50,295 nucleotides of DNA from a virus. Made by a program: the position numbers and the translations under genes. Below, piece after piece: positions 4,249 through 29,331 of the stretch. The stretch lies in IMG/VR virus record IMGVR_UViG_3300045988_134262; one strand, given 5' to 3'. The notes below the pieces were generated by a model that did no database searches, was not told the origin of the DNA, and saw nothing but the letters and a program-made list of their open reading frames with translations. Positions within the stretch are counted from its first letter, which is position 1. Every line of letters starts with the position of its first letter.

Positions 4249-4264
4249 AAAGGAGAATGGATAT

Positions 4265-6299: not shown

Positions 6300-7186
6300 T
6301 TATCTATCTAAGTGGACAAGGTGGGATATTTAATCAATCTTACGAAAAGTGGAAAAGGACTAAAAAAAATATGGATATGTACTTAGTGATAAGTGGAGAG
6401 ACAGGAAACCCTCAAATATGTAAGGAAAAATTAGATATGGAAATATATTTAGCAGGTTCAGAAGCACAAGCAAAACAAATGAATGAGGATAATAAAGATA
6501 ATTTATTTAAAGGAACAAATGTATTGCAATCATATTATTATTGTAACGAATTTACTGAAAAAGTAGTTATACCATCATGTGATAGTTTTATGTTGGATAG
6601 TGGCGCTTTTACATTTTTCTCAAGTGGGAAAAATGTAGATTGGAATGATTATATAGAAAAGTATGCTGACTTTATAGTAAGAAATGATGTTAAACTATTT
6701 TTTGAATTAGATATTGATGTTTTAATTGGATATGAAAATGTATTGCGTTTAAGAAAAAAATTAGAATCATTAACGCATAGAAAATGCATACCTGTTTGGC
6801 ATAGGTCAAGAGGATTAGACGAGTTCATCAAAATGTGCAAAGAATATGATTATGTTGCATTAGGTGGAATAGCAATAAAAGAGATAAGCAGAAAAGAATA
6901 TAAATATTTCCCAAAATTAATTAAAATAGCACATGATAACGGAGCAAAAATTCATGGACTAGGGTTTACTAGTTTAAACGGAATAACTAAATATCATTTT
7001 GATAGCGTTGATAGCACATCATGGGTTAGTGGAAACAGATTTGGAAAAGTTTATAAATTTAACGGAAAAACAATGGTATGGTATGACAAAAAAGAAGGTC
7101 AGCGTTTAGCAGATAGCAGAAAAGTAGCAGTTCATAATTTTAAGGAGTGGGCTAAATTTGCTGAATATGCTAAAAATAATTTATAA
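6296..7186 (+). CDS. dpdA: DpdA-like DNA (7-deaza)guanine transglycosylase (TGT superfamily)
   Basis: TGT-like motifs FMLDSGAFTFF (cf. DSGGFQ), ALGGIA, HGLGFT and HFDSVDSTSW (cf. archaeal-type FDSA). It sits directly upstream of queD-queE-folE. Start taken at the ATG at 6296 (GGAG RBS, ATGA overlap). Confidence 0.65.
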   Translation: MIIYLSGQGGIFNQSYEKWKRTKKNMDMYLVISGETGNPQICKEKLDMEIYLAGSEAQAKQMNEDNKDNLFKGTNVLQSYYYCNEFTEKVVIPSCDSFMLDSGAFTFFSSGKNVDWNDYIEKYADFIVRNDVKLFFELDIDVLIGYENVLRLRKKLESLTHRKCIPVWHRSRGLDEFIKMCKEYDYVALGGIAIKEISRKEYKYFPKLIKIAHDNGAKIHGLGFTSLNGITKYHFDSVDSTSWVSGNRFGKVYKFNGKTMVWYDKKEGQRLADSRKVAVHNFKEWAKFAEYAKNNL

Positions 7187-7214
7187 AAGCATTTAGATGA
7201 AAAAGGAGAAAAAT

Positions 7215-7550
7215 ATGTATTATGTTAAAAAAAGAATTGAAGTAAGTGCTAGTCATAAACTTAACTTAAGTTATGAAAGTAAATGTGAAAATCTACATGG
7301 ACATAATTGGATAATTGATATTTACATGAGAAGCGAAGAATTAAATAAAGATGGAATGGTAATGGACTTTACTCATATTCAAAAAGAAATCAAAGATAAA
7401 TTAGACCATAAGAATTTAAATGATGTTCTTTCATTCAACACAACAGCAGAAAATATTGCAAAGTGGATTGCGGATACATTAGGAGAAAAATGCTATAAAG
7501 TTGATGTGCAAGAAAGCGAAAATAATATTGCAACTTATGAGGTAGAATAA
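7215..7550 (+). CDS. queD: 6-carboxy-5,6,7,8-tetrahydropterin synthase
   Basis: C-x3-HGH motif (CENLHGHNW), MVMDF and LDHKNLND. Size is about 110 aa. Confidence 0.85.
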   Translation: MYYVKKRIEVSASHKLNLSYESKCENLHGHNWIIDIYMRSEELNKDGMVMDFTHIQKEIKDKLDHKNLNDVLSFNTTAENIAKWIADTLGEKCYKVDVQESENNIATYEVE

Positions 7551-7551
7551 A

Positions 7552-8208
7552 ATGAAAGTTAATGAAATTTTTAAAAGCATTGACGGAGAAGGATTAAGAA
7601 CAGGAGAATTAACAACTTTTATCAGATTAGCAGGTTGTAATTTAAGATGCTCATACTGCGATACATGTTATGCATTAAAAAATTCTAATGGAACAGAAAT
7701 GTCTGTTGATGAAATTGTTAAAAGGGCAAAAAAATATGATTATAGAAACATCACATTGACAGGAGGAGAACCACTTATTAATAAAGATGTTGATGATTTA
7801 ATTTCTAAATTATGTGAAAATGGGTTTTATGTAAATATTGAAACAAATGGAAGTGTACCTATTGATAAGTACATTTTAAATAAAAACATTCTTATTACAA
7901 TGGATTACAAACTTCCTTCTAGTGGTGTTGAAAAAAATATGAATTTAAACAACTTAGAAAAATTAAGAGCAAATGATGTATTGAAATTTGTTATTGGAAA
8001 AGATGATTTTGATAAAGTTAAGCAGATAATTGAAAAATATAGAATCAAATCATATATTTATTTAAGCCCTGTCTTTGGTGAAATAGAACCTTTTGAAATA
8101 GTTGATTTTATGAAAATAATGCATACACAAGGAATTGATACGTCAAAAATGAGGGTGCAAGTTCAGTTGCATAAAATCATATGGAATCCAAACGAAAGAG
8201 GTGTTTAA
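7552..8208 (+). CDS. queE: 7-carboxy-7-deazaguanine synthase (radical SAM)
   Basis: N-terminus [14 protein letters not shown], cluster motif [10 protein letters not shown], and LTGGEPL. Confidence 0.85.
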
Positions 8209-8209
8209 T

Positions 8210-8776
8210 ATGGATAAGAAAAAAATTGAAAATGCAGTTAGAGAAATTCTTATTGCAATTGGAGAAAATCCCGATCGTGAAGGATTAATTGAGACACCAA
8301 AAAGAGTTGCCAAAATGTATGAGGAAGTGTTTGAAGGCATTCAATATTCAAATGAAGAAATTGCTAAAATGTTTGATAAAAAATTCAAGCAAGAAGGAAA
8401 TGATTTAGTTTTAGTAAAAGATATCCCATGCTTTAGTTACTGCGAGCATCATATCGCATTAATGTATAACATGAGTATTAATATTGCATATATTCCAAAT
8501 GGTTATGTATTAGGTCTTTCAAAATTTGCAAGAATTTCCGACATGGTCTGCAAAAGATTACAGTTACAAGAAAGAATTGGAACAGACATTGCAGATATTT
8601 TAGAAATGATATTAGGAACTGATGATATTGCAGTTGTAATAAATGGAGAGCATTCTTGCATGACTGCAAGAGGTATTAAAAAACCTAATACGAAAACAAG
8701 AACAGCAACATTGCGTGGAAGATTCAAAGAAAACGCTGAATTAAGAAATGAACTATATAATTTACTTTCTAAATAA
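8210..8776 (+). CDS. folE: GTP cyclohydrolase I
   Basis: [33 protein letters not shown] and HSCMTARG are classic FolE blocks. Confidence 0.9.
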
Positions 8777-11440: not shown

Positions 11441-12316
11441 TTGGACAATGAATTTATTTTGATTGATAGGGTTGATTCTATCAAGAAAGTTATAAACAAA
11501 TATGGAATTGAAAATTTTGTTATTTCATTTAGTGGAGGAAAAGATTCCACTGTATTATCAAAGTTAATTGATATTGCAATACCTAATAATGATATTCCAA
11601 GGGTATTCATAAATACAGGTATTGAATATAAAGCAATTGTTGATTTTGTGCATGAGAATATGAAAAAGGATAAACGATTTATTGAGATTAAACCATCAAT
11701 ACCTTTAAGCATGATATTTAGAAAATATGGTTATCCTTTTAAATCTAAGGAACATAGTCAATTAGTTCATTTATTTCAGCAAAACGGACATAGCAAAACA
11801 ACTCTTAGATATTATAACCCTCCAGAAAATCGCAAGCGTTTTGGTTGCCCTAAAGTATTAAAATATCAATTTGAAGAAGGAACACAACTTAAAATAAGTG
11901 ATAAGTGTTGCACTAAATTAAAAAAAGAACCATTTACAAAATGGCAAGAAGAAAATAGAAAACCTTATAAAATGACAGGAGAAAGACTTTCGGAGGGTGG
12001 TTTAAGAGCATCTCATAAAGGTTGCTTAGTTATTGATAAGAATAGCAAACTAAAGAAATTTAAACCATTGAATCCTGTCACTAGTGAATGGCTTGAATGG
12101 TTTATAAATGAGTATAAAGTTCAATTATGCAAATTATATGATGAACCTTATAACTTTAAAAGAACAGGTTGTTTAGGGTATCCATTTAATATTAATTTGC
12201 AAGATACATTAGATACTTTAGAAAAGACTTTGCCACTTGAGAAAAAGAAAGCAGAAGCAATTTGGAAAGAAGTATATCAAGAGTATAGGAAATTAAATTA
12301 CAGATTAAAAAGGTAA
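11441..12316 (+). CDS. PP-loop ATP pyrophosphatase, PAPS-reductase-like family
   Basis: SFSGGKDST PP-loop, INTGIEY, CCTKLKKEP, TGERLSEGGLRA and KRTGCLGYP follow the PAPS_reduct block order. The only possible start before the PP-loop is TTG at 11441, and it has no clear SD. Confidence 0.7.
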   Translation: MDNEFILIDRVDSIKKVINKYGIENFVISFSGGKDSTVLSKLIDIAIPNNDIPRVFINTGIEYKAIVDFVHENMKKDKRFIEIKPSIPLSMIFRKYGYPFKSKEHSQLVHLFQQNGHSKTTLRYYNPPENRKRFGCPKVLKYQFEEGTQLKISDKCCTKLKKEPFTKWQEENRKPYKMTGERLSEGGLRASHKGCLVIDKNSKLKKFKPLNPVTSEWLEWFINEYKVQLCKLYDEPYNFKRTGCLGYPFNINLQDTLDTLEKTLPLEKKKAEAIWKEVYQEYRKLNYRLKR

Positions 12317-12799: not shown

Positions 12800-13276
12800 A
12801 TGATTAATTGCGAAAGATACATAGATGATATTTTAAAAACTAATAATTGTGATTTTGGATTTAATAAACGTGATAGAAAAATTATAAAATGTGATGCAAA
12901 ATATTGTGATGAATGTTTATTCAATCCGAAAAATTGTGCATATAAATCAACATGTAATGTTTTAAGATTAAAATGGTTGGCTTCTGAAAATAAAGAACCT
13001 ATTAGGTTGAATAGACTTGAATATGAGGTTTTAAAATTCATAGAATTTGGATATATTGCTAGGGATAAAGAAGGAAATTTATTTTCATTTTGGTATAAAC
13101 CAAGAAAATGTAATGATATTTGGGATTGTGATGTTCCTAAGAATCAAAATTATTCACATGATTTAACTTTATTCAATGAATTATTTAAATTTATTAGATG
13201 GGAAGATGCAGAACCAACTTCAATAGAAGAATTATTAAAAAATTGCGAGGTAACTGAAAATGCTGAAAACAGATGA
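12800..13276 (+). CDS. Family A paralog 1 (Cys-rich N-terminus plus conserved W-E/K-D...EP(T/K)SI C-terminal domain)
   Basis: LNRLEYEVLKFI...YIARDKEGNL...LFNELFKFIRWEDAEPTSIEELLKNCEV aligns with four other ORFs. Confidence 0.65.
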   Translation: MINCERYIDDILKTNNCDFGFNKRDRKIIKCDAKYCDECLFNPKNCAYKSTCNVLRLKWLASENKEPIRLNRLEYEVLKFIEFGYIARDKEGNLFSFWYKPRKCNDIWDCDVPKNQNYSHDLTLFNELFKFIRWEDAEPTSIEELLKNCEVTENAENR

Positions 13277-13457
13277 TATTGCTCAATTTGTCGCAATTAG
13301 TGGACTAATGAATTATTGTAAATCTCATGATGATTGCAAAAATTGCAATATGTATAATCTTTGCAATGTACTGACAGGAGAAAAGAAATTAACGTGGGTT
13401 ATTGATAAAATTATATTTGAACATTCAGATAATGAGGAGGAAAAAGAATATGAATAA
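13260..13457 (+). CDS. Small Cys-rich protein
   Basis: YCKSHDDCKNCNMYNLC. The start lies in a conserved junction TTGCGAGGTAACTGAAAATG. Confidence 0.5.
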   Translation: MLKTDDIAQFVAISGLMNYCKSHDDCKNCNMYNLCNVLTGEKKLTWVIDKIIFEHSDNEEEKEYE

Positions 13458-13917
13458 TGGAGAAAAATACAAAGATAAAATTATTGAAGAATATCAAAAT
13501 TTACTAAAAGAAAAAGTTATTGATGGTGATGGCAATAGAATGAATAGAGCAATTAAGGAAATTGCATATAAATATTGTGGAATGAGATTACTTGGCGCAT
13601 CTAGTACATTTGAATGGTTATTTGATGATTATAAAGAACAACCTATCAAATTAACTAGATTAGAATATTTATTATTAAAGTTATTTTATGAAAAAGATTT
13701 TAGGTATTTAACAAGAAGTGCTGGAGGGTTTTTGTATATGAATAAAGGAAATAATCCTCCTCAAAAAAAAGATGGAATGTGGTTTAATTGCGAATCTTAT
13801 ATAACTTATGATGTAATTAATGATTTATTTCAATTTGTGCAGTGGAAAGATGAACAACCTAAATCAATCAAAAAAATACTAAATAACTGCGAAGTATTTG
13901 ATAATGAAGATAACTAA
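13450..13917 (+). CDS. Family A paralog 2 (lacks the Cys-rich N-terminus)
   Basis: LTRLEYLLLKLF...YLTRSAGGFL...INDLFQFVQWKDEQPKSIKKILNNCEV. GGAGG RBS. Confidence 0.65.
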   Translation: MNNGEKYKDKIIEEYQNLLKEKVIDGDGNRMNRAIKEIAYKYCGMRLLGASSTFEWLFDDYKEQPIKLTRLEYLLLKLFYEKDFRYLTRSAGGFLYMNKGNNPPQKKDGMWFNCESYITYDVINDLFQFVQWKDEQPKSIKKILNNCEVFDNEDN

Positions 13918-13961
13918 ATTAATTATTCTTATGAAAAATGGCGATTATTGGAGGGTTTAAA

Positions 13962-14417
13962 ATGATTAATGCAGAAAAATATAAAAATGAATTAAAATCA
14001 TTAAATGATGCAGATAAATTATGGTGTAGTGCTTTTAATAAATATGATATGACTTTTGACAGTTGTGTAAATGTAAAATGTGAAAATTGTGCATTTAGCG
14101 GTGGCAAAGGTTGCAGGGTAGAACGTTATAATTGGCTATTATCTGAGTATATCGAACATATTGAGGTTAGCGAGTTTGAATATAAGATTCTTAAATATCT
14201 AGCAGATAAAACAAGACATATGTATATCGCAAGAGATAAAAGCGGAAGCCTATATCTCTATGATTCTGAGCCTTGCAAGAGCAACACTAAAAATTTGTGG
14301 ATTGGTAAAGGTACACCACAACTAACACCATTTAATAAACTGTTTAAATTTATCACGTGGGAAGATGATAAACCAACATCAATCAAAGATGTTTTAGATA
14401 ATTGCATTATTAAATGA
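13962..14417 (+). CDS. Family A paralog 3
   Basis: MINAEKYKNEL, a C-x13-C-x4-C-x2-C-x7-C block, YIARDKSGSL and FNKLFKFITWEDDKPTSIKDVLDNC. Confidence 0.65.
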   Translation: MINAEKYKNELKSLNDADKLWCSAFNKYDMTFDSCVNVKCENCAFSGGKGCRVERYNWLLSEYIEHIEVSEFEYKILKYLADKTRHMYIARDKSGSLYLYDSEPCKSNTKNLWIGKGTPQLTPFNKLFKFITWEDDKPTSIKDVLDNCIIK

Positions 14418-14434
14418 AATTATGAAAATAATTG

Positions 14435-14463
14435 TTGATATTATATGTAATACATAGTATAAT
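14435..14463 (+). promoter_or_regulatory. Conserved early promoter copy 3 (TTGATA-17-TATAAT) with ATGTAATACAT in the spacer
   Basis: Read directly. It lies inside the paralog array. Confidence 0.65.
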
Positions 14464-14495
14464 TTACTTGTAAATTGAAAAGGAGGAATAATGAT

Positions 14496-14771
14496 ATGAA
14501 AATAAAACTTAGAACACAGTACGTATTTGAAGGTCTAGAGGATAGATATGAAACATTGCAAAAAATTTTAAAACATAATTTTGGAATTGCTGAATCGAAT
14601 GATGAAGTAGCCGTATTATGTAATGTTATGAATTGCGATAAGTGTAAATATTTTAATGAGGATTATCCTTGTGCAACGCAAGAGGTTTTAGAATTATTAC
14701 ATTTAATTACAATGTTAAGAAAACAAAATTGTCAATATACAGAAATTGAAATTGAAGAAACGGGGCATTAG
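14496..14771 (+). CDS. Small Cys-rich protein
   Basis: AAGGAGG RBS. Contains CNVMNCDKCKYFNEDYPC. Confidence 0.5.
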   Translation: MKIKLRTQYVFEGLEDRYETLQKILKHNFGIAESNDEVAVLCNVMNCDKCKYFNEDYPCATQEVLELLHLITMLRKQNCQYTEIEIEETGH

Positions 14772-14774
14772 AAA

Positions 14775-15248
14775 ATGATTAACGCTGAAAAATTCAAAGA
14801 TGAATTAAGAATAATTATTGATTCAAATAAATTAAATGATTGCGCATTTAGAAAAAATAATAAAACATTTTGTGAGTGTTCTGATACTTTTTGCGAAAAT
14901 TGCATATTTGATAACAGAAAAGGCTGTCAGTACGGACGCATAAAGTGGATGCTTTCAGAGTATAAAGAAGGGATCGTTTTATCAAAACTTGAATATGCAC
15001 TTTTAAAATATATTTTTAACAGAACAAAATATAGATACATTGTTAGAAGTAAACTTGGAGAAGTTTTCGTTTATGAGAACGAACCAATAAAAAACGGTGA
15101 TGATTGGAGCGTTCTTTTAAATGGTGGAGGATTTACAACTATAGTGTTTTTAAGTGAATTATTCAAATTTATAAAATGGTCTGATTTAACAGCAATATCA
15201 ATAAAAGATGTTCTTGCTGATTGTAATGTTATTGATGATAATTATTAA
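14775..15248 (+). CDS. Family A paralog 4
   Basis: MINAEKFKDEL, a Cys block ending CENC, YIVRSKLGEV and LSELFKFIKWSDLTAISIKDVLADC. Confidence 0.65.
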   Translation: MINAEKFKDELRIIIDSNKLNDCAFRKNNKTFCECSDTFCENCIFDNRKGCQYGRIKWMLSEYKEGIVLSKLEYALLKYIFNRTKYRYIVRSKLGEVFVYENEPIKNGDDWSVLLNGGGFTTIVFLSELFKFIKWSDLTAISIKDVLADCNVIDDNY

Positions 15249-15290
15249 TAAAAAAATGATATTAAAAATAGAGTGAGTGGGTTAGATAAT

Positions 15291-15623
15291 ATGAACGTTA
15301 TTTCTATGGAACTGCATGAGGAGCAGATAACAGAGTTACAAAGTAAGATTGAAGAATTAGAAAGCGAAAAGCATTGTTTAGAAGAAGAATTAGAAGATTT
15401 AAAAATTGAAAATGATGATTTGGAAGACAGATATAAAAGTTATAAAGAAACATATCAAAGTGTATTGAATATTTATAATGATAATTTAAAAAAGTTAGAT
15501 GATATGCAAAAATTAAATAGTAAATTAGTTAAAAATAATAAAGAATCTAATAGAGATTTCTTTATTCTTGCAACAGCATATGCTATTACATTAATTATAA
15601 TTATTTACTTATTTATTTTATAA
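15291..15623 (+). CDS. Coiled-coil protein with C-terminal TM anchor
   Basis: An E/L/K heptad-like N-terminus is followed by FFILATAYAITLIIIIYLFIL. Confidence 0.5.
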   Translation: MNVISMELHEEQITELQSKIEELESEKHCLEEELEDLKIENDDLEDRYKSYKETYQSVLNIYNDNLKKLDDMQKLNSKLVKNNKESNRDFFILATAYAITLIIIIYLFIL

Positions 15624-15635
15624 TAGGAGAATGTT

Positions 15636-15875
15636 ATGGAAGATTATAGAACATGTGAATATGAAGATAAAAAATATATATTCCACTGTTTTGAACAATG
15701 GTCAAACGTTATAGGAGAATCTCCTATGATTGGTGGACATTCAGCAGGACAAATTAGTCTTGTGTTTGCCATAATAGAAGATTCAAAAGGCAATATCTAT
15801 CGTGTTGAGCCTACAAATATTAAATTTACCGATAATAAATATATTGATTATTTTTGGGGATTAGACGAGGAGTGA
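15636..15875 (+). CDS. Hypothetical protein
   Basis: ORF with an AGGAG RBS. Confidence 0.5.
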   Translation: MEDYRTCEYEDKKYIFHCFEQWSNVIGESPMIGGHSAGQISLVFAIIEDSKGNIYRVEPTNIKFTDNKYIDYFWGLDEE

Positions 15876-15880
15876 TATAT

Positions 15881-16042
15881 ATGTTATTACATATATTAGA
15901 AAATGTATTTTATATATTTGCTATTATAATGCTGATTATTGGTATTCTTATTGCAATATCAGTAATTGCTATAGCAGTATTCATTATAATGTCGGTATTT
16001 GTAAATGGAATTGTAGAAGATAAGGAGAACAATAATTTATGA
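15881..16042 (+). CDS. Small membrane protein
   Basis: GAGGAG RBS. Almost entirely hydrophobic. Confidence 0.45.
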   Translation: MLLHILENVFYIFAIIMLIIGILIAISVIAIAVFIIMSVFVNGIVEDKENNNL

Positions 16043-16206
16043 CAATAGAAGAATTAAGAAATAAAATAATTGATACGTTGAACGATCAAAAAGTTCGCAT
16101 TGAAGGTGATGAAAGAGATGAGTATTTTAATTACGGTGTTAATACTTGCATAAATTATATTGAAGATATTTTTAAAGAATATGAGGAATCAAAAAATGAT
16201 TGTTAA
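16039..16206 (+). CDS. Small hypothetical protein (55 aa)
   Basis: ATGA overlap with the upstream gene. AAGGAG lies upstream. Too short for the supplied ORF track. Confidence 0.4.
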   Translation: MTIEELRNKIIDTLNDQKVRIEGDERDEYFNYGVNTCINYIEDIFKEYEESKNDC

Positions 16207-16375
16207 TGATAAAAAATTGCACTTATTACTTGAAATGATAAATTTTGTAGCAAACTGCAATTATGTGTATTTTAATTGGTATGGAGAAAGATGTAGGTAT
16301 CAGTTAGATTGCAATGAAAAATGTCCATTCTACAATGTTGAAAATATGATGAAATGGGTAAAAGAAGGAGATTAA
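16196..16375 (+). CDS. Small Cys-rich protein
   Basis: GAGGAA RBS. Contains CRYQLDCNEKCPFYN. Confidence 0.5.
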   Translation: MIVNDKKLHLLLEMINFVANCNYVYFNWYGERCRYQLDCNEKCPFYNVENMMKWVKEGD

Positions 16376-16377
16376 GT

Positions 16378-16923
16378 ATGACTAAATTAAATGTAACTAT
16401 TGAGATGGTTAACGGTGATGAATATTTAATTAAAAAAGACTGTTTTAATCCTAATGAGTACATTAAACAAATGAAAGAAAAACTTAAAAATAATGAAGCA
16501 ATTGAAATTCATGAGGATTATGAATTTTGTTGCAATGATAAAGTGGGCTACAGAACAATAAAACCAACAATAGAAGAACCTTTATTAATCAACGCTTCAA
16601 ACATTGTAACTATTGAATTTGAGAAAGAGCAAATTAAAGAAAAGATTAAGTTAACAAAATTTGAACGTGATATATTAAAACATTGCTTATATAAAAATCG
16701 TAATTATATTGCAAGAGATTATAACGATAACCTAAAAGTATATGAGTATCCACCAAAGAAAGATGGAAAAACTTGGGAAAATTTAATTGATTCCGATAAT
16801 TTAAATTTATGTGAAGATATGTTTTTATGCGTATCATGGAATGATGAAGAACCAACATCAATCGCAGAGTTATTAAAAAATTGTGATAAAGATTGCGAGG
16901 TTACTGAAAATGACAGTAAATGA
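16378..16923 (+). CDS. Family A paralog 5 (12536-like N-terminal domain fused to the family A C-terminal domain)
   Basis: The N-terminus is VTIEMVNGDEYLI...INASNIVTIE. The C-terminus is LTKFERDILKHC...YIARDYNDNL...WNDEEPTSIAELLKNC..CEV. Confidence 0.65.
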   Translation: MTKLNVTIEMVNGDEYLIKKDCFNPNEYIKQMKEKLKNNEAIEIHEDYEFCCNDKVGYRTIKPTIEEPLLINASNIVTIEFEKEQIKEKIKLTKFERDILKHCLYKNRNYIARDYNDNLKVYEYPPKKDGKTWENLIDSDNLNLCEDMFLCVSWNDEEPTSIAELLKNCDKDCEVTENDSK

Positions 16924-17492: not shown

Positions 17493-17685
17493 AATTGATA
17501 CTATTGTATGCAATGTTATTGATATGGCAATAGATAATAGATTAATGCTTGATGGAAATGAACCAAGTCAAAATAAAAAAGAAGCATTAAAAATAAGAAT
17601 AAATTATCTAAAGCACCTTTTAAATGATTCAAAAGATGAACTTGATGAGATTGAAAGTCTTGAAGAAATAGAAAAATATATATAG
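17476..17685 (+). CDS. Hypothetical acidic protein
   Basis: GAGGAG RBS. This is the last gene before the ORF-poor region. Confidence 0.5.
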   Translation: MQKMIKIDTIVCNVIDMAIDNRLMLDGNEPSQNKKEALKIRINYLKHLLNDSKDELDEIESLEEIEKYI

Positions 17686-17696
17686 AATATAAGTAT

Positions 17697-17826
17697 ATCC
17701 CTATATTGATGTAAATATTTTTTAAAAATTTAGTTACTTGATCTAATCAAAACAAGACTTATAAGAAAATTCTATTAAATACCCGTTTAGATTCTTTTCA
17801 TTTAATCTCATTGTCAATATAGGGAT
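17697..17826 (+). ncRNA. Stem-closed structured element, unit 1 (candidate ncRNA or DNA structure)
   Basis: A perfect 13-bp closing stem pairs ATCCCTATATTGA (17697-17709) with TCAATATAGGGAT (17814-17826). The internal hairpin AGT-TA-CTTG...CAAG-ACT is conserved in unit 2. Confidence 0.4.
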
Positions 17827-17830
17827 TCAA

Positions 17831-17930
17831 TAACGCATTGATATTTAATTTTTAATATTATTAGTTACCTGCACTAATCAAAACAGGACTTTATGCATTT
17901 TAGATTTACCATCTCATTTTCAATGCGTTA
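17831..17930 (+). ncRNA. Stem-closed structured element, unit 2 (paralog of unit 1)
   Basis: A perfect 11-bp closing stem pairs TAACGCATTGA with TCAATGCGTTA. The internal hairpin AGT-TA-CCTG...CAGG-ACT carries a compensatory T-A to C-G change relative to unit 1. Confidence 0.4.
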
Positions 17931-18016
17931 AATAGTGATGAAAACATAAATAAAGAAGAAGAAAGAAGGAAATCACCTCACAGACTAGATTTCCTATGCT
18001 AGTAATCACTATACAT

Positions 18017-18060
18017 AGAAGGTTGATAAAAAAAACACTCTTCAAAAAAATCAACCTTCT
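18017..18060 (+). other. Long hairpin (10-bp stem, 24-nt loop) closing the structured region
   Basis: AGAAGGTTGA ... TCAACCTTCT followed by TAAATTTTT. Possibly a terminator. Confidence 0.35.
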
Positions 18061-18102
18061 TAAATTTTTAAAAAAATATAAGTATCACACATCGCTTATT
18101 TA

Positions 18103-18111
18103 TGATATAAT
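18103..18111 (+). promoter_or_regulatory. Extended -10 promoter (TGATATAAT) with a degenerate operator-like GTATCACAC upstream
   Basis: Read directly. There is no good -35. Confidence 0.4.
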
Positions 18112-18126
18112 ATATATGAAATAGAG

Positions 18127-18318
18127 GTGATAACATTGAACGAAAAAACAAGCAAAGCACAACTTAAAGCAAGTGCAAAATACAATAAGATGAATACAAA
18201 GAATTTTCCTATAAAAGTAAATAAGAAGACAGAAAAAGATATTTACGATCATTTAGAAAAAATTGGAAATGTTAATGGATATATTAAGAATTTAATTAAA
18301 GCAGATATCGAACGCTAA
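18127..18318 (+). CDS. Small ribbon-helix-helix-like DNA-binding protein (candidate regulator)
   Basis: The pattern KASAKYNKMNTKNFPIKVNKKTEKDIYDHLEKIGNVNGYIKNLIKADI recalls small Firmicute RHH/CopG-like proteins. The start is ambiguous between GTG 18127 and TTG 18136. Confidence 0.45.
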   Translation: MITLNEKTSKAQLKASAKYNKMNTKNFPIKVNKKTEKDIYDHLEKIGNVNGYIKNLIKADIER

Positions 18319-18336
18319 AAAGCGTTCATTTTTTTA
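18310..18336 (+). terminator. Rho-independent terminator
   Basis: GAACGC-taaaaa-GCGTTC followed by ATTTTTTT. It overlaps the stop codon. Confidence 0.75.
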
Positions 18337-18339
18337 TTA

Positions 18340-18438
18340 TGTAAAAAATGTAAAAGAATGAGTAAAGTTCGTTGTAAAAAATGTAATAATATGCATAAAA
18401 TTCGTTGTAAAAAATGTAAAAACATGTATAATATTAAT
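18340..18438. repeat. Three tandem 33-bp repeats (TGTAAAAAATGTAAnAnnATGnnTAAnnTTCGT)
   Basis: Units at 18340, 18373 and 18406, read directly. Confidence 0.8.
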
Positions 18439-18604
18439 TGAGGTGAATAGGACACCTCACTTTGGTCGTCAGTAGTTTGTCGTTTTGGTTTACTTGTTTT
18501 CATTTTGGTTTTGTGTCCTCCAAAACACATGAAAGGGTGATTCCTTTCAAAGGGGCTATATATTATATAGTTCCTTTTTTTGTTGCAAAAATAATCAAAA
18601 ATGC

Positions 18605-18633
18605 TTGATTGTATGTGATACATATAGTATAAT
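18605..18633 (+). promoter_or_regulatory. Conserved early promoter copy 5 (TTGATT-17-TATAAT) with ATGTGATACAT in the spacer
   Basis: Read directly. Confidence 0.65.
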
Positions 18634-18662
18634 AAGTATGTAAAGAAAGAGAGGATATAAAA

Positions 18663-18839
18663 ATGAGAGCAAGAATTTATTTAAATGGAAAGAGAATTAC
18701 AAAAAAGAAAGCAAGGGAATTATTTGGAAATGAAAAAGTAGAAAAAAGAATTCAAGAAGCAGAAGAAAGTTTCATTAATGATCCATATGAAGAAATTTCA
18801 TGGATGGACGGAATGGAAATAAGATTTGTATTTAAATAA
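18663..18839 (+). CDS. Small hypothetical protein (58 aa)
   Basis: Conserved leader with an AGAGAGG RBS. Flanked by a promoter copy and a terminator. Too short for the supplied ORF track. Confidence 0.5.
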   Translation: MRARIYLNGKRITKKKARELFGNEKVEKRIQEAEESFINDPYEEISWMDGMEIRFVFK

Positions 18840-18842
18840 ATT

Positions 18843-18866
18843 AAGGTGAGAAATCACCTTTTTTTA
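18843..18866 (+). terminator. Rho-independent terminator
   Basis: AAGGTGA-gaaa-TCACCTT followed by a T-run. Confidence 0.8.
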
Positions 18867-18877
18867 TTTAAAAAATA

Positions 18878-18905
18878 TTGAAAACATTATGAAAATGAGT
18901 ATAAT
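18878..18905 (+). promoter_or_regulatory. Sigma-A-like promoter (TTGAAA-16-TATAAT) lacking the dyad operator
   Basis: Read directly. It drives the ORF-free segment below. Confidence 0.5.
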
Positions 18906-19176
18906 AATACTTGCAACCAAGAGTTGCAAAGATGCATGTTCTTTTACTCAATTTCTTAAATCATTTTTATATAAGCACTTGAAAATAGTGCTTATAAATA
19001 CACCTATAATTCAATAGTAGAATAATCTCCTTATAAGGGAAATACGGAGGGGCAGAACCTTCTAGGTGTACCATCAATGTATCGTTTTTCATTAGTTTTT
19101 TTCTTAAATTTAGTACGAGGAAAACAGAACACTTTTTTCCAAAAGAAGGCAGTGAAGTTATCACTGTCTTTTTTTT
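18906..19176 (+). ncRNA. Candidate structured RNA or regulatory leader (promoter to terminator, no credible ORF)
   Basis: Hairpins at 18911-18929 (7 bp) and 18971-18995 (9 bp). An 8-bp long-range stem pairs 18999-19006 with 19063-19070. A terminator lies at 19148-19176. Confidence 0.4.
19148..19176 (+). terminator. Rho-independent terminator immediately upstream of the late gene block
   Basis: GGCAGTGA-agtta-TCACTGTC followed by T8. Confidence 0.75.
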
Positions 19177-19276: not shown

Positions 19277-19753
19277 ATGGCTAAGCGTGGAAGAAAAGAA
19301 AAGAAAGAATATATACTTGAAAACCTTGAAGTTATAGAACAAATGGTTTCTAAAGGTTATCCCGAGAAAGATATATGTAAACATCTAGGCATAGGAATAA
19401 GCACATTTTCTAAGTATAAAAAGGAATTAATAGAATTATCAACAGTTCTTAATAAAGCAAAGAAAACAAGGCTTGAAGAACTTGAAAACATCTCTTATAA
19501 AACTGCTATGGGATTTGAATATACAGAAGAAAAAACAATTATTCAATTAGATGAAAATGGGAATCCATCAAGAAGGGTTAAGGAAATTTATAAAAAAAGA
19601 GCGCTACCAAATCCTGCAATGCAACAGTATTTAATGAATAACTGGAGTGATGGAAAATATACTAAAGATCCAATGAACGCTAAATTCAAGGAAGAAGAAT
19701 TAAAACTAAAAAAAGAAGCAAATGAATTAATGAAAGATTGGGATATTGAATGA
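19277..19753 (+). CDS. Terminase small subunit-like HTH protein (alternatively a late regulator)
   Basis: MAKRGRKEK..., the HTH DICKHLGIGISTFSKYKK, then ENISYKTAMGFEYTEEKT...LPNPAMQQYLMNNW. This pattern is common in Firmicute phage small terminases. Confidence 0.5.
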   Translation: MAKRGRKEKKEYILENLEVIEQMVSKGYPEKDICKHLGIGISTFSKYKKELIELSTVLNKAKKTRLEELENISYKTAMGFEYTEEKTIIQLDENGNPSRRVKEIYKKRALPNPAMQQYLMNNWSDGKYTKDPMNAKFKEEELKLKKEANELMKDWDIE

Positions 19754-24373: not shown

Positions 24374-24640
24374 ATGGACTTTACACAGTTAACGCAGTAT
24401 TTTGTTTTAGTCGTAATGGTCGCTTGTCTAGTCGTAGGATATATTATCAAGACATCTTTTGATAAAGTACCAAATAAGTACATTCCAACAATTCTTGCGG
24501 TTGTTGGGGCCGTTCTTAACGCAGTAGTTAGTGGCATGTCTGTCAATTCGATTGTTTATGGAGCACTTATGGGGCTTGCTTCTACAGGACTACATCAGGC
24601 CTTTACTAGATTTGTTGAAGGTGAGAAAGAAGGTGTTTAA
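24374..24640 (+). CDS. Holin, copy A
   Basis: Two TM helices. GLASTGLHQAFT is shared with 42414..42674. Confidence 0.7.
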   Translation: MDFTQLTQYFVLVVMVACLVVGYIIKTSFDKVPNKYIPTILAVVGAVLNAVVSGMSVNSIVYGALMGLASTGLHQAFTRFVEGEKEGV

Positions 24641-25166: not shown

Positions 25167-26054
25167 ATGAAGGTAAACGTACACGGTGGACATTCTCTTA
25201 AATGTAGAGGAGCAAGCGGATTATTAGACGAAGTAAACGAAGATAGAGCGGTAAAGAATAGAGTAATTGAATTGTTACGTGCAAATGGACATACTGTTTA
25301 TGATTGTACAGATGATAACGGAACAACACAAAATGCGAACCTAAAAGCAATCGTTAATAAATGTAATTCACATTCTGTTGATTTGGATGTATCTATTCAT
25401 CTAAACGCAGGAGGTGGAACAGGAACAGAGGTATATATCTATAACAGTAAATCAAAAGCAAAAGATGAAGCAACTAGAATTGCGGAAAATGTTTCTAGTG
25501 CATTAGGTATCAGAAATAGAGGAGTTAAAACAAGTACTAGTTTATACGTATTGAGAAAGACAAAAAGTCCAAGTCTTTTAATTGAATGCTGTTTTGTTGA
25601 TAACGAAACAGATAAAGTAAGATGGAACGCTGACAAGTGTGCAAAAGCAATTGTTGAAGGTATTCTAAATGATGCAGTAAATAATGTTACTCATACAGAA
25701 TCACCAAATCCAAAGCCAACAACAAACCATAACGCAAATGGCTATGATGAATGGGTAGCACGTTTACAGAGAGAACTAAATGATCAGTTTGATAAAGGTT
25801 TGGACGTTGACGGATTAAAAGGTCATAAGACTTTAAATGCATGCGTAACAGTCAAGCGTGGAGCAATGGGAAATATCACAAGATTAATTCAAGAAAGATT
25901 AAATAGCGTTGGATTCAGTCTTTCAACTGATGGAATCTTTGGTGGAAACACTGAAAATGCCGTTAAAGTATTCCAAAAAAATAGAGGATTGAAATCAGAT
26001 GGAATTGTTGGAAGAAATACATGGAATTGGCTTCTTAAAGGAACTAAGATGTAG
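25167..26054 (+). CDS. Endolysin: N-acetylmuramoyl-L-alanine amidase (Amidase_3) with two PG_binding_1 repeats
   Basis: The amidase part has HGGHS...E...D..SIHLNAGGGTG.EV...LLIECCFVDN. The C-terminal repeats are LQRELN...GLDVDG and VFQKNRGLKSDGIVGRNTW. Confidence 0.85.
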   Translation: MKVNVHGGHSLKCRGASGLLDEVNEDRAVKNRVIELLRANGHTVYDCTDDNGTTQNANLKAIVNKCNSHSVDLDVSIHLNAGGGTGTEVYIYNSKSKAKDEATRIAENVSSALGIRNRGVKTSTSLYVLRKTKSPSLLIECCFVDNETDKVRWNADKCAKAIVEGILNDAVNNVTHTESPNPKPTTNHNANGYDEWVARLQRELNDQFDKGLDVDGLKGHKTLNACVTVKRGAMGNITRLIQERLNSVGFSLSTDGIFGGNTENAVKVFQKNRGLKSDGIVGRNTWNWLLKGTKM

Positions 26055-26093: not shown

Positions 26094-26789
26094 ATGAGAT
26101 ACTTCACTAATTTAAATCAATTCTATTCTAGTAAGGAATGGAACAACCTAAAGAAATTTATAATATCACAACGAATAAATGAGAATGGTGATATTATTGA
26201 CGAGTATACTGGAAAACCAATATATAGAAAGTATGATATGGTCTTTCATCATAAGATAGAGTTAAACCTAACAAATGTAAATGACCCTAACATATCATTA
26301 AATCCAGATAACATTATGATTGTATCGCACAAGTCGCATAATGAGATACATGAAAGATTCGGATTCTATCAGAGCAAAGTTATACTAGTACATGGCAATT
26401 CATGCAGTGGAAAGACAACGTTTGTAAAAGAGAATAAAAGGATAGATGATATAGTATGCGATATAGATTCAATATGGCAGATGATTTCTTTAAATGAAAG
26501 ATACATCAAGCCTAATAGATTGAAAGAACCAGTGTTTGATATTAAACGTTCCTTATATGAGATAATTAAAACTAGAAGAGGTTCATGGTTCAATGCATGG
26601 GTTATAACTACATGTCCATATGTTATGGAAAGACAAAGGCTAATTGATAAATTAGGAGTAGATGAAGTTATCCATATTGATACTCCAAAAGATGAATGTT
26701 TAAAAAGATTATATGAAAACCCACAAGGAAGAAACATTGAGGAGTGGGCAAAGTATATAAATGATTATGCTAATAAGTATCAATCATAA
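26094..26789 (+). CDS. HNH endonuclease fused to a P-loop kinase-like (AAA_33-type) domain
   Basis: The N-terminal half has DMVFHHKIEL...IVSHKSHNEIH. The C-terminal half has the Walker A HGNSCSGKTTFV and VIHIDTPKDECLKRL. Confidence 0.65.
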   Translation: MRYFTNLNQFYSSKEWNNLKKFIISQRINENGDIIDEYTGKPIYRKYDMVFHHKIELNLTNVNDPNISLNPDNIMIVSHKSHNEIHERFGFYQSKVILVHGNSCSGKTTFVKENKRIDDIVCDIDSIWQMISLNERYIKPNRLKEPVFDIKRSLYEIIKTRRGSWFNAWVITTCPYVMERQRLIDKLGVDEVIHIDTPKDECLKRLYENPQGRNIEEWAKYINDYANKYQS

Positions 26790-26950
26790 TATATATAATA
26801 GGCATTATTAAACATATTATGATATTCTCCTTTCTTGTAATTTCTACGTTTAATATGTAAGACCTATTTGTATTTAGTAGAGAACTATTAAGACTAATCC
26901 TTTCGCTTGATAGTTCTTTAGTGTATACAAGGATATAAGGAGGTATATAT

Positions 26951-27088
26951 ATGAATAGAATACCTATGAAGAACAAGAGAAGAAAGAAGAAAGAGGAGTA
27001 TAAAGAACATAAAGACTATGAAGATATAAAGAAGAAGCATAAGAAAGAATATGCAGTGAAGAAAAGAATAAATATTGAGGAAAGATAA
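26951..27088 (+). CDS. Small highly basic protein (45 aa)
   Basis: Strong AAGGAGG RBS. The sequence is K/R/E-rich. Too short for the supplied ORF track. Confidence 0.35.
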   Translation: MNRIPMKNKRRKKKEEYKEHKDYEDIKKKHKKEYAVKKRINIEER

Positions 27089-27284
27089 TTATATGATTTC
27101 TTGAAAAGAATATGGATATACCCCAATTCAAAAATTGAATTTTGGTTCTAAAGTAAGTGTGATTGGGTCACGTTTTCCATACAAGCCAATTTTTCAAACT
27201 TTTCAAAAATAAAAACCCTAAAAAATTGAAAATCATATAAAATTATCAAAAATTATGTAAAATAAACAAAAAAGGTGTGATGAT

Positions 27285-27590
27285 ATGACAGAAGAGCAGT
27301 TAAAAAGTATATTTAGCAACTTAGATGATGGAAATAAGGAAGTTTTATCAAGTATGATACCAGATTTTCTTTTTGAACAGGAGCAGATAGAAAAGATTAA
27401 AGAAGCATTATTAAAAATAGGTATTCCAACTAGCAAGTCAAAAGCAGAACAAAAGAAATATCTTTCTAAAGAATATTCAGACTTATCTCAAAGACACGAT
27501 AGCAAGATTAAAATTATACTATCAACTTTAGGTAAGTTTGATGTTAAGGAAGATAGTCCATTGATGGAGATGCTAAAACAGTTTGAGTAA
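27285..27590 (+). CDS. Putative terminase small subunit (call based on position)
   Basis: Lies directly upstream of, and overlaps, terL and follows the HNH gene as in HK97-like cos phages. It has only a weak P27-like PDFL..E motif. Confidence 0.35.
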   Translation: MTEEQLKSIFSNLDDGNKEVLSSMIPDFLFEQEQIEKIKEALLKIGIPTSKSKAEQKKYLSKEYSDLSQRHDSKIKIILSTLGKFDVKEDSPLMEMLKQFE

Positions 27591-29331
27591 GCCTTTATAT
27601 CTCAAGACAAAAGAAACATGGTTGGAAACCTATCAAGATTGCATCAATAAAGGATATATTGATTTATACAATGAGGAAAAAGATGAATACATCAAAACAC
27701 CTTTAATAGTAGGAATGGAAATGAGAAAAGAAATAGATAAATTAGTTGAAGATCTTTCAAATCCTAAATATATCTATGATACAAAAGAAAGTGAAAAAAG
27801 AATTAGATTCAAGGAAACGTGTTGCTTTCAAGGGAAAAAGCCTTTCTTTATGAAGGCTATGAGTTTGATGCTACAGCAAAAAGCATTTTGGGAAGTTGTA
27901 TATAGTTTTAAAATGGCAGATACAGGAATAAGGAGATTTAATGAAGTTCTTGAATTAGTAGGAAGAAAAAACGGAAAATCAACAGACCTTGCAAGTGATG
28001 GAAATTTTGATTTATTTCTTGGCAGTGGTGGTGAGGATATCGTTTGTGCTTCAAATGATGATAAACAGGCTTCTCTTATATGGAAAGAAATAGGAGGTAT
28101 GAGAGGAAGGCTTGATACTAAAAATGAACTCACAAGGCAGAATTTAGCAGAAATAAGAAACGATATAAAGAACATCACAATATTTAAAATGAGTGAAAAG
28201 ACACAAAATAAAGATGGTCGAAATATTGATAAATGCTATTATGATGAAATGCATGATAGCAAGACTAATGAAATATTCATGGCATGTTGGGAAAGTATGT
28301 CCATTAAAGATAATCCGTTACTGATAACAAGTACAACAGAGGGTTTTATAAATGATGGGCTACTTGATGAAAAACTAGAATATGCTAGAGGTGTTTTGAA
28401 TGATGAAATTGATGATGAACATTTCTTGCCATGGTTGTTTACTCAAGATTCAACACAAGAAATATTCCAAGATAAATGGAGTTGGTGCAAATCAAATCCA
28501 TCTTTAATTTATGGAGTAAAGAAATGGTCATTCATTGAAAAGAATATGATTAAGGCTAAGTTATCAAAGTCTTCAAAAGTGCATATGTTATGTAAGGATT
28601 TTAATATCAAGCAGAACAGTGCAGAAGCATGGTTACAAGATGATTGCTTTTACCCTCAAAATATTTATTCACTTGAGGACTTTAAAAACTGCGTAGCAAT
28701 AGCAGGAGCAGATTTATCGCAGACATCAGACTTGACTTGTGTAACTATGATGTTTATGAGACCTAATGACGAGCATAAATATTTCTATAATAAATATTTC
28801 ATTCCCGAAAGCAAATTGGATAGCGATAAAAATGGGGGTGCAAGATATAGAGAGTGGGCGCAAAGAGGGTTTGTTGAAGTCCATGAAGGTAATAGAGTTT
28901 CACTTTCTAAAGTTGCTGAATGGTATTTAAAGGTATTTGAGCAATACAATATTAGAATATTTAAATTAGGATATGACCAACGTTTTGCAAATGATTTCTT
29001 AAATGCTATGAAAGAAATTGGTTACGGATATAAAAAAGGTGAAACTTGCGAAATGATAAATCAGAATAAATATGTAATGAGTACACCAATGAAACATCTT
29101 GAAGCAGACTTAAAATCTCAATATGTTCAAGGACTTAATGAGGTTGACTTGTGGTGTTTCAAAAATACAACTTTTGAAATGGATAACAATGAATTGATAT
29201 TGCCTGCTAAGATGAAAACAGAAATGCGAATTGATGGAACTAGTGCATGCATAGATACTTATGCGATATTATACAGATATGAGAATGAATACATGAAGCA
29301 TGTCAACGAATATAATGGAGGTGTTGAATAG
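27583..29331 (+). CDS. terL: Terminase large subunit (Terminase_1 type)
   Basis: Walker A VGRKNGKST, Walker B-like CYYDEMHD, and a C-terminal nuclease region. The TTG start is inferred because the first in-frame ATG is 43 codons downstream. Confidence 0.85.
   Translation: MSKPLYLKTKETWLETYQDCINKGYIDLYNEEKDEYIKTPLIVGMEMRKEIDKLVEDLSNPKYIYDTKESEKRIRFKETCCFQGKKPFFMKAMSLMLQQKAFWEVVYSFKMADTGIRRFNEVLELVGRKNGKSTDLASDGNFDLFLGSGGEDIVCASNDDKQASLIWKEIGGMRGRLDTKNELTRQNLAEIRNDIKNITIFKMSEKTQNKDGRNIDKCYYDEMHDSKTNEIFMACWESMSIKDNPLLITSTTEGFINDGLLDEKLEYARGVLNDEIDDEHFLPWLFTQDSTQEIFQDKWSWCKSNPSLIYGVKKWSFIEKNMIKAKLSKSSKVHMLCKDFNIKQNSAEAWLQDDCFYPQNIYSLEDFKNCVAIAGADLSQTSDLTCVTMMFMRPNDEHKYFYNKYFIPESKLDSDKNGGARYREWAQRGFVEVHEGNRVSLSKVAEWYLKVFEQYNIRIFKLGYDQRFANDFLNAMKEIGYGYKKGETCEMINQNKYVMSTPMKHLEADLKSQYVQGLNEVDLWCFKNTTFEMDNNELILPAKMKTEMRIDGTSACIDTYAILYRYENEYMKHVNEYNGGVE

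Follow-up and report, generated by a model that had tools for sequence, protein, structure and literature searches.

A candidate family of structured RNA modules with a covarying fold in related human-gut phages

We analyzed a stretch of 50,295 nucleotides from a virus (IMG/VR record IMGVR_UViG_3300045988_134262, hereafter the window), a low-GC (~27%) tailed-phage genome in which nearly every gene lies on the + strand. A gap at 17686–18126 contains four abutting stem-closed elements, namely two paralogous units (unit 1 and unit 2), a third domain and a last hairpin, and the spacing between neighboring stem-closed domains is 1–5 nt. Comparison with related phages suggests that the region from ~17660 to 18070 would be a + strand transcription unit for a phage-specific structured RNA, whose core is unit 1, a portable and conserved module of ~130 nt. 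Our preferred reading, which we hold tentatively with a probability of about one in three, is that this is a leader or non-coding RNA (ncRNA) module carried in cis, in which the closing helix of unit 1 (P1) would shield the 5' end and the invariant loop of an internal hairpin (P2) would dock a trans-acting factor. An earlier note on this DNA had proposed either a multi-domain phage RNA of ~350 nt or a DNA-level structure (an origin, a single-strand initiation site, or a packaging or recombination site). The RNA is favored by covariation in P2, in the closing stems and in the third domain, by a wobble bias on the + strand and by the promoter-like and terminator-like signals that bracket the region, whereas the DNA-level alternatives are disfavored. 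Overall, the interpretation given in that note is partly supported.

Unit 1 (17697–17826, + strand) is closed by a perfect 13-bp stem, in which ATCCCTATATTGA (17697–17709) pairs with TCAATATAGGGAT (17814–17826). An A/U-rich variable linker lies 3' of the first strand of P1. It leads to P2 (17732–17759), a bulged hairpin of 7 bp formed by AGU-UA-CUUG and CAAG-ACU around a 12-nt loop, AUCUAAUCAAAA. Further downstream are a possible third helix, P3 (AGAUU at 17789–17793 with AAUCU at 17804–17808), and the 3' junction, AUCUCAUUGUC. Unit 2 (17831–17930, + strand) is a shorter paralog of unit 1, closed by a perfect 11-bp stem (TAACGCATTGA at 17831–17841 with TCAATGCGTTA at 17920–17930). Its outermost pair is lost in relatives, so that the conserved P1 of this unit has 10 bp (17832–17841 with 17920–17929). 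P2 of unit 2 (17863–17890) consists of AGU-UA-CCUG and CAGG-ACU and has the same loop, CUAAUCAAAA, as unit 1, and the 3' junction, AUCUCAUUUUC, is identical in the two units. The covariance model scored 126.6 bits on unit 1 and 81.1 bits on unit 2. The units share a 44-nt block of 80% identity (17717–17760 and 17848–17891) and a second block, ATCTCATTNTCAAT (17805–17818 and 17911–17924). Common to both are the inner 5 bp of P1 (AUUGA/UCAAU), P2 with the invariant loop CUAAUCAAAA, and the 3' junction strand AUCUCAUUNUC. Both closing stems with their ATTGA/TCAAT ends, the conserved inner block (AGT-TA-CTTG/CAAG-ACT and AGT-TA-CCTG/CAGG-ACT) and further shared motifs had been described in the earlier note, and all of them were borne out.

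Domain 3 (17933–18011, + strand) is closed by 7 bp between UAGUGAU (17933–17939) and AUCACUA (18005–18011), a stem that had been recognized before with coordinates off by one (17932–18010). It contains a purine-rich tract and, as also previously seen, an inner hairpin of 7 bp, GGAAAUC (17968–17974) with GAUUUCC (17988–17994), whose loop begins AUCACCUC (17972–17979). This octamer is the exact complement of the Shine-Dalgarno (SD) region of the next gene, GAGGUGAU (18124–18131). The last hairpin lies at 18017–18060 as predicted, with a stem of 11 bp (18017–18027 with 18050–18060) rather than 10. Together with its tail, UAAAUUUUU, it makes up a terminator-like hairpin at 18017–18069 (+ strand), which is the predicted 3' end of the RNA. 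The region had also been described as free of open reading frames (ORFs). This is true of 17697–17919, where no ORF of at least 30 amino acids (aa) is present on either strand, whereas two mechanical ORFs of 42–44 aa overlap the 3' part (17920..18054 on the − strand and 17996..18124 on the + strand).

To judge these stems we used the chance expectation for inverted repeats within 150 nt, obtained by first-order Markov simulation of the 50-kb window, which was 0.57 for perfect 13-mers and 7.5 for perfect 11-mers. A single perfect 13-mer is therefore unremarkable in AT-rich DNA, and the case rests on the ensemble and on comparative data. The fold energy of 17690–18075 corresponded to z = −3.6, and none of 100 shuffles was as stable. 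The excess over chance lies in the combination of three abutting stem-closed domains, the fold energy and, above all, the behavior of pairs in ~50 homologous sequences. Two other perfect 13-bp inverted repeats occur in the window, at 18674–18686/18830–18842 and at 47590–47602/47607–47619; both are AT-rich and within the chance expectation, and the former brackets most of a 58-aa ORF at 18663–18839.

Homologs were collected by two pattern scans of IMG/VR and one scan of public metagenomes, which recovered the element only from related human-gut phage contigs. After deduplication, 38 distinct unit-1 and 12 distinct unit-2 homologs were obtained, and an alignment of 47 sequences (A2; 37 unit-1 and 10 unit-2) was used to examine pairing. 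The named structure was paired in 97.7% of cells, compared with 90.5% in column shuffles and 32–41% with slid partners. The covariation score was 0.260 versus 0.124 in shuffles, and 0 of 500 shuffles scored as high. Covariation in related phages, which the earlier note had proposed to examine, thus supports the fold. P1 was paired in 98.6% of cells and P2 in 100%, and compensatory changes were seen in both. In P2, two adjacent pairs change on both sides (C-G/U-A/A-U, then U-A/C-G), giving the variants CUUG/CAAG, CCUG/CAGG and CACG/CGUG among orthologs; the replacement of T-A by C-G that had been noticed between the two units of the window recurs in this series. Within unit 1, one pair of P1 runs through A-U, G.U and G-C, with full compensation in locus L069, and six P1 pairs are wholly changed between unit 1 and unit 2 with pairing kept. 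RNAalifold found P1 and the P2 core unguided. The closing stem of domain 3 occurs in 10 distinct two-unit loci as AGUGAU/AUCACU, AGUGAU/AUCGCU (U.G) and AGUGAC/AUCGCU (C-G). P3 received no covariation support, and its pairing is broken in some sequences. A search of all column pairs for additional tertiary or pseudoknot covariation found nothing convincing; a UUAG/CUAA pairing in the P2 region is invariant and so gives no covariation signal.

Unit 1 showed 90.7% identity between loci (gaps counted as mismatches). The adjacent protein gene had 91.7% identity at codon positions 1 and 2 and 74.0% at third positions, and unit 1 is about as conserved as the former. The sequence of P1 is nearly invariant, and the linkers vary in length and sequence. 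Indels of 1–6 nt in the linker and the P3 loop, together with the absence of an ORF, indicate that unit 1 is not coding.

One-sided changes in A2 produced 31 cells with G.U on the + strand, against a single A.C cell, and this excess assigns the fold to the + strand. A + strand RNA is the natural, though inferred, reading of such a comparison. A single-stranded DNA fold of the + strand would tolerate G.T as well. Indeed, the wobble bias is compatible with a + strand DNA hairpin. A DNA-level element might be an invertible switch, an insertion resembling a miniature inverted-repeat transposable element (MITE), a structure for single-strand initiation or an origin, or a site of packaging or recombination, and several other features could belong to such an element: segments of 104 and 78 bp are bounded by inverted repeats of 13 and 11 bp, the module sits at a mosaic junction between phage genomes, and an 11-nt direct repeat flanks it. 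However, the orientation of the interior relative to both flanks is constant in ~70 loci, and no recombinase is located nearby, the ORF at 19277 having only a resolvase-type helix-turn-helix (HTH). Replication genes (3256–5724) and terminase genes (26094–29331) are far off. The P2 covariation, and the G.U-type changes that break DNA palindromy in 22 of the 47 sequences, would be unexpected for protein-binding half-sites. We therefore regard a DNA-level element as very improbable. As to specific classes, an invertible DNA switch (inverton) was rejected on the single orientation and on the lack of a detectable recombinase catalytic domain nearby. A MITE was rejected as well, since the terminal repeats of the units differ, each genome has one unit-1 copy, the window contains only two model matches and the species-representative genomes contain none.

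A consensus scan located a sigma-A-type promoter-like site at 17660–17688 (+ strand; TTGAAG-17 nt-TAGAAT). Its −10 hexamer is separated from P1 by 8 nt, and the predicted start is within ~2 nt of the first base of P1. The promoter DNA, TTGAAGAAGCAGAAAAATATATATAAAATATAAGTAT, precedes unit 1 in most relatives, and TATAAGTAT is found directly 5' of P1 in nearly all of them. This DNA appears to be translated in one frame in L003 (...EEAEKYI*) and in another in L022 (...KKQKNIYKI*), and in L039 it lies after the stop codon of the upstream ORF; as it apparently occurs in two frames or past a stop codon, it is conserved as DNA. At the other end, the hairpin at 18017–18060 is conserved in all two-unit relatives. 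Its 11-bp stem has 5 G-C pairs and is followed by the U-tail UAAAUUUUU on the + strand only, no U-run being found after the stem on the − strand. Its loop, at 22 nt, is atypical, and because it exceeds 8 nt, 18017–18069 is not called by the consensus scan. The product in the window would be a predicted non-coding RNA of ~375 nt, with its start at about the first base of P1 and its 3' end at the terminator-like hairpin.

The arrangement differs among relatives. In most loci, a strong ribosome-binding site lies within 16–37 nt after unit 1, together with a conserved 61-aa ORF that has two transmembrane (TM) segments; in L061 and L068, another ORF follows unit 1. Most relatives have no terminator after unit 1, which runs straight into the coding gene. 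In place of the TM ORF, the window and about a dozen relatives have unit 2, domain 3 and the terminator-like hairpin. The genes that flank unit 1 vary on both sides between loci; DNA homology between L040 and the window, for example, spans the early genes and ends at unit 1. Part of the DNA of unit 2 corresponds to the leader and to roughly the first 15 codons of the TM ORF. A tblastn search of the window with the TM protein matched residues 5–14 to 17876–17905 (E = 1.8, which is suggestive only), and this part of unit 2 is probably a relic of the N-terminus of the 61-aa protein of relatives, a view that is supported by aligning it with the loci that have the ORF. Unit 2 thus looks like a chimera, in which a partial copy of unit 1 was laid over the 5' end of the TM gene, and the window no longer has the 61-aa ORF. 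The whole RNA module is bracketed by an 11-nt direct repeat, AATATAAGTAT (17686–17696 and 18075–18085, copies 100% identical), the right copy of which overlaps the −35 region of the next promoter. In addition, the start of domain 3 (AAATAGTGATGAAAACAT, 17930–17947) resembles the translation-initiation region of the next gene (AAATAGAGGTGATAACAT, 18119–18136). The flanking repeat and this likeness suggest that the module arose by duplication or insertion at the site.

A 24-aa hydrophobic ORF (MDFIGILLIA.SI.LIAIGY.W.E) is often present beside the 61-aa ORF, downstream of unit 1, in single-unit relatives (L040 at 6418–7035; L006, L037, L053 and L062). Both encode small membrane peptides of a toxin-like or exclusion-like kind that match no family. 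Searches of Pfam, PHROGs and NCBIfam with the neighboring 116-, 69-, 60-, 58- and 61-aa proteins gave no informative matches.

The distribution of the module is narrow. No copies were detected by a pattern scan of 185,579 species-representative genomes, and a TerL scan of the same collection for a host found nothing. By TerL, the closest cultured relatives are Butyrivibrio phages (50% identity). A blastn search (distant setting) with 1 kb around the element had no match among GenBank phages. Within the window, a filter-free covariance-model search returned only units 1 and 2, and a search with the model in 67 related loci, which were anchored on a paralogous early-gene family, returned only contigs already in the homolog set. 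The module was present in 11 of these 67 loci, always 1.4–4 kb downstream of the anchor and on the same strand. This occupancy makes it accessory. From its sequence context, we describe it as a portable cassette close to the downstream end of the array of early genes.

Based on these data, we propose the following model. Unit 1 would fold by itself into the closing helix P1, floppy A/U-rich linkers, the bulged 7-bp P2 with its CUAAUCAAAA loop, and the junction strand AUCUCAUUNUC. It would usually carry its own sigma-A promoter, starting transcription at the first base of P1, and would lie in sense orientation as the 5' leader of the 61-aa two-TM gene in most relatives. In the window, a partial copy of the module may have overwritten the 5' end of the TM ORF, producing unit 2, which is followed by domain 3 and a putative intrinsic terminator. 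The module would act on the transcript that carries it. By locking the 5' end in a helix, P1 may protect the transcript from 5'-end-dependent decay, and the invariant P2 loop with the adjacent junction may be the docking site for a trans partner, either a protein or an RNA, that would control message stability, translation or elongation. The RNA of the window might, in addition, pair with the ribosome-binding site of the following gene through the anti-SD loop of domain 3. The shared inner pairs of P1, P2 loop and junction, together with variable linkers, ordinary stability of the interior and a free SD, agree with a docking platform for a specific partner, held in a clamp-like helix; a compact aptamer or ribozyme fits this pattern less well.

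Structured leaders and 5'-terminal stabilizer stem-loops are known from mRNAs of Firmicutes and their phages, such as the ermC and aprE leaders and the stabilizer of SP82 early RNA. As in these cases, the helix described here is at or beside the predicted transcription start and upstream of an accessible ribosome-binding site, and it is proposed to act in cis on its own transcript. However, the known stabilizers are simple hairpins, whereas the interior closed by this helix is 104 nt long and has a covarying hairpin, a loop core of 10 invariant nucleotides and a conserved junction. Another difference is that the module persists without its promoter.

Several observations weigh against the cis-acting leader. 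About one third of the loci lack the −10 region, having short deletions or a different upstream sequence, and in these the module must work or persist inside read-through transcripts, which weakens the idea of 5'-end protection. Related phages also have the TM ORF at other places, without the module and with nothing left of it but the last 10 nt of P1, so that the module is not needed for expression of this ORF. The SD of the downstream ORF is not sequestered in the predicted folds, so that a translational switch is not apparent. Outside P1 and P2, the interior has an ordinary thermodynamic stability (z = −1.65 and +0.49). All homologs come from one closely related phage group, and therefore few independent events underlie the covariation; in P1, most of the signal is one paralog split. 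Finally, no target of the P2 loop was found inside the phage.

The loci without a promoter bear on another possibility, that the module is an RNA processing or insulation site, whose stems serve as RNase III-type cleavage sites or exonuclease barriers that separate the early transcript from downstream cassettes and leave stable hairpin ends. In such loci the module would be intercistronic. The P1 sequence is almost invariant, and in the window perfect helices of 13, 10–11, 7 and 11 bp stand back to back between co-directional genes, all of which would agree with processing. However, this idea leaves unexplained why the P2 loop and the 3' junction are invariant and common to units with differing P1, and why the promoter is placed exactly at P1. 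In addition, classical RNase III substrates are typically longer helices than the 13-bp one that closes a three-way junction here. We consider a dedicated processing site quite improbable.

The two-unit loci, with their promoter-RNA-terminator layout and no ORF (as found in the window and in all two-unit relatives), raise the question of whether the RNA acts in trans. It might be a small RNA (sRNA) or decoy, either from a stand-alone ncRNA gene or excised at the closing stems, with the P2 loop titrating a host or phage factor (for example, a protein of defence or RNA metabolism) or base-pairing with an mRNA of the host; in addition, the 375-nt RNA of the window would use the anti-SD loop of domain 3 for repression of the neighboring 60-aa gene. 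The stem-closed domains abut within 1–5 nt like units of a processed precursor, both flanks are variable as for a self-contained gene cassette, the distribution is accessory and moron-like, and AUCACCUC exactly complements GAGGUGAU. On the other hand, most relatives have no terminator after unit 1, which enters a coding gene, the P2-loop complement is absent from the phage, and octamers complementary to a consensus SD are common by chance. A trans-acting RNA is thus possible, but we judge it rather unlikely.

The gene that would be repressed belongs to the next transcription unit (18084–18318, + strand). This unit has a promoter with ATCACA-16 nt-TATAAT and an upstream TG (18084–18111), the SD GAGGUGAU and a UUG start at 18136, encodes a 60-aa protein that matches only PHROG families of unknown function, and ends at a terminator at 18310–18327. 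It is located 3' of the RNA in every two-unit relative.

The position of the module is also reminiscent of processive antitermination. It is promoter-proximal, in the sense strand and structured, and is placed at the junction of the early genes with the lysis and terminase genes (holin at 24374, endolysin at 25167, TerL at 27583). Besides the hairpin of the RNA itself, terminator-like sites occur on the + strand at 18310, 18549, 18843 and 19141, within 1.5 kb downstream, whereas the preceding 17 kb has one weak site. A rule-based terminator finder placed the same cluster between +460 and +1300 in each two-unit locus with enough downstream sequence. A nascent module could bind RNA polymerase, alone or with a factor, in the manner of HK022 put, Bacillus EAR or Tn916 canT, so that transcription from 17660 would read through 18017–18060 and the later terminators towards the lysis and packaging genes. 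There is precedent in canT for cis-acting antiterminator RNAs of 350–450 nt in Gram-positive mobile elements (PMC11658703), and the RNA here, at ~375 nt, is similar in size to the 452-nt canT fragment. Like put, EAR and canT (PMC11658703; PMC9378689), it would be an orientation-specific structured RNA near a promoter in a mobile element, followed in the window by multiple terminators.

However, this layout, seen in the window and the two-unit loci, is absent from single-unit loci, in which no enrichment of terminators was found downstream. Unlike the known systems, no match in sequence or structure was detected, either to put, EAR and canT or to any Rfam family, most related phages do not have the element, and read-through is hypothetical here. 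As 56 of the 67 related loci lack the module, it is not the general late-gene control of the group. In L061 it is followed by more early-type genes and then by an apparent sigma/ArpU-like regulator and a small terminase (read from sequence alone). The terminators may only bound independent small cassettes, since promoters are present at 18084 and 18878. Taken together, we think it unlikely that the module is an antiterminator.

A further comparison is with the PR'-6S RNA-tR' region of phage lambda, where a short terminated RNA is made upstream of the lysis and packaging genes. There, the control element is a DNA site (qut) that acts with the Q protein, and the 6S RNA has no conserved fold. The window has a similar constitutive-looking promoter and a predicted short terminated RNA at the early/late junction, but no Q-like gene was found among the neighboring proteins with Pfam, PHROGs and NCBIfam.

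The phage carries genes of the 7-deazaguanine (preQ0) pathway, including TGT/DpdA-like, QueE and FolE genes, and because of this we considered tandem riboswitch-like aptamers that perhaps sense a 7-deazapurine. Each unit forms a junction closed by P1 around a conserved core, the two are arranged in tandem, and what comes directly after them is a ribosome-binding site in relatives and a terminator in the window. Furthermore, an H-type pseudoknot can be drawn for the P2 region, with UUAG/CUAA interleaved with CYUG/CARG and an A-rich strand in between, a topology like that of the preQ1-I riboswitch (RF00522), which is likewise a small hairpin with an A-rich 3' strand. However, no Rfam riboswitch model matched at E ≤ 10, including sub-searches with 45 and 246 nt. 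The preQ1-I model itself had no match at this threshold, and the two loop positions before CUAA, which would pair with the ligand, vary (AU, AA, UA, CA, GA, GU); this class was rejected. P1 is 13 bp long and very stable, with no alternative pairing to the SD or the terminator evident, and the linkers are variable in length and sequence. Moreover, the hairpin is inside a larger closed domain, the que genes are 9 kb away, and the module, unlike metabolite riboswitches, occurs in a single phage group and was not found in cellular genomes. A riboswitch is therefore highly unlikely.

We also compared the element with other known RNA classes. The Rfam scan proposed in the earlier note did not connect it to a known family: Rfam 15 at gathering thresholds had no matches in the whole window, and E-value mode on 17600–18200, 17690–17935 and 17722–17766 gave only chance-level matches (E ≥ 1.6). 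ARAGORN found no tRNA or tmRNA in the window. For bacterial type B RNase P RNA, the only match was a local one of 6.2 bits between 17722–17766 and the last 62 model positions (E = 3.3), and the class was rejected. The 3' half of P2 with its flanks (17741–17766, and the equivalent in unit 2; AUCAAAACARGRCUYAUAAGAA) resembles the conserved 3' end of this RNA (ACAAAACAUGGCUUACAGAA), and the bulged P2 helix resembles its helix P4; this likeness is probably due to chance.

Type III antitoxin RNAs consist of tandem, nearly identical repeats of ~34–45 nt followed by a terminator and a gene for a ToxN-like endoribonuclease. Membership in this class (toxI/cptI type) was rejected, as the units here are 100 and 130 nt long and only partly alike, and the downstream gene encodes 60 aa without a family match. 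With regard to type I toxin-antitoxin systems, the leader in relatives precedes the 61-aa two-TM and 24-aa TM ORFs, and the window has no intact ORF; no conserved antisense promoter or terminator was found, and the wobble changes favor the sense strand. A hammerhead-type ribozyme was rejected too, the junctions being ~22–30 nt long and variable on two of three sides, which misfits the core, with no Rfam match. A phi29 pRNA-like ring was rejected in view of P2 and P3 loops that are not consistently complementary and of terminase-type packaging in this phage.

Other features of the window are as follows. A 7-deazaguanine (preQ0/queuosine-type) gene set occupies 6266–8776 and 11441–12316. It comprises a TGT/DpdA-like transglycosylase (6266–7186), a QueE-like radical SAM protein (7552–8208), GTP cyclohydrolase (FolE, 8201–8776) and a PAPS-reductase/QueC-like ATPase (11441–12316), and suggests that the phage modifies its DNA with a 7-deazaguanine base. 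In the early region, five paralogous genes of 34–42% mutual identity are located in a row at 12800–16923; they belong to an unknown family, PHROG 22292, that is widespread in related gut phage contigs. The lysis cassette, with a Hol44-family holin (24374–24640) and an endolysin (25167–26054), is upstream of the terminase genes, which include an HNH/small-terminase-like gene (26094–26789) and TerL (27583–29331); this is a lambda-like order. A second small-terminase-like protein with the resolvase-type HTH is encoded far upstream of them (19277–19753).

Downstream of the RNA, at 18310–19175, four terminator-like hairpins on the + strand lie within ~900 nt, together with several on the − strand. 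These form an island of very small transcription units that has been conserved throughout the two-unit relatives. At 18878–19175, ~235 nt separate a strong promoter-like site (TTGAAA-16-TATAAT, 11 of 12 matches) from a 15-pair terminator, and the only ORF between them is a doubtful one of 42 aa. This segment, for which Rfam gave nothing, may be a second non-coding RNA. Just 3' of the 60-aa gene (18335–18425), three direct copies of (C)GTTGTAAAAAATGTAA(A) are spaced by ~35 nt. They could be operator-like or iteron-like sites, or could code for a 27-aa repetitive, Cys-rich peptide (MSKVRCKKCNNMHKIRCKKCKNMYNIN).

In its intergenic location, covariation support and frequent position upstream of genes, the module is similar to candidate structured RNAs (csRNAs) reported from IMG/VR and human microbiomes (Fremin et al. 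2023, PMC10690425; Fremin and Bhatt 2021, PMC8040213), and it shares their data source, gut phage contigs of IMG/VR. These catalogs contain roughly 10,000 motifs with no function assigned (PMC10690425; PMC8040213). Our data point to a new candidate RNA family of narrow distribution, which may already be present, unnamed, in the IMG/VR csRNA catalogs (PMC10690425). With its compact, covariation-backed fold, clear strand and defined (predicted) start and stop, this family is well suited for study. It also offers a natural series of variants, namely single units with an ORF, tandem units without an ORF, promoter-less copies and truncated remnants, which lets the role of a portable leader or ncRNA cassette be tested.

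To our knowledge, very few regulatory RNAs of gut Firmicute phages have been characterized. If the module is only a stabilizing leader, it would be a tidy but ordinary example. A bolder view, which we find doubtful, is that it represents either a self-contained, horizontally shuffled phage ncRNA gene that captures a specific host factor through the P2 loop (a decoy, anti-defence or host-takeover RNA, the dose of which would be doubled by the tandem copy) or the first of a new class of processive antiterminators that consist of RNA alone, in phages of gut Firmicutes. If it were indeed an antiterminator or a host-factor decoy, it would add a new family to a short list.

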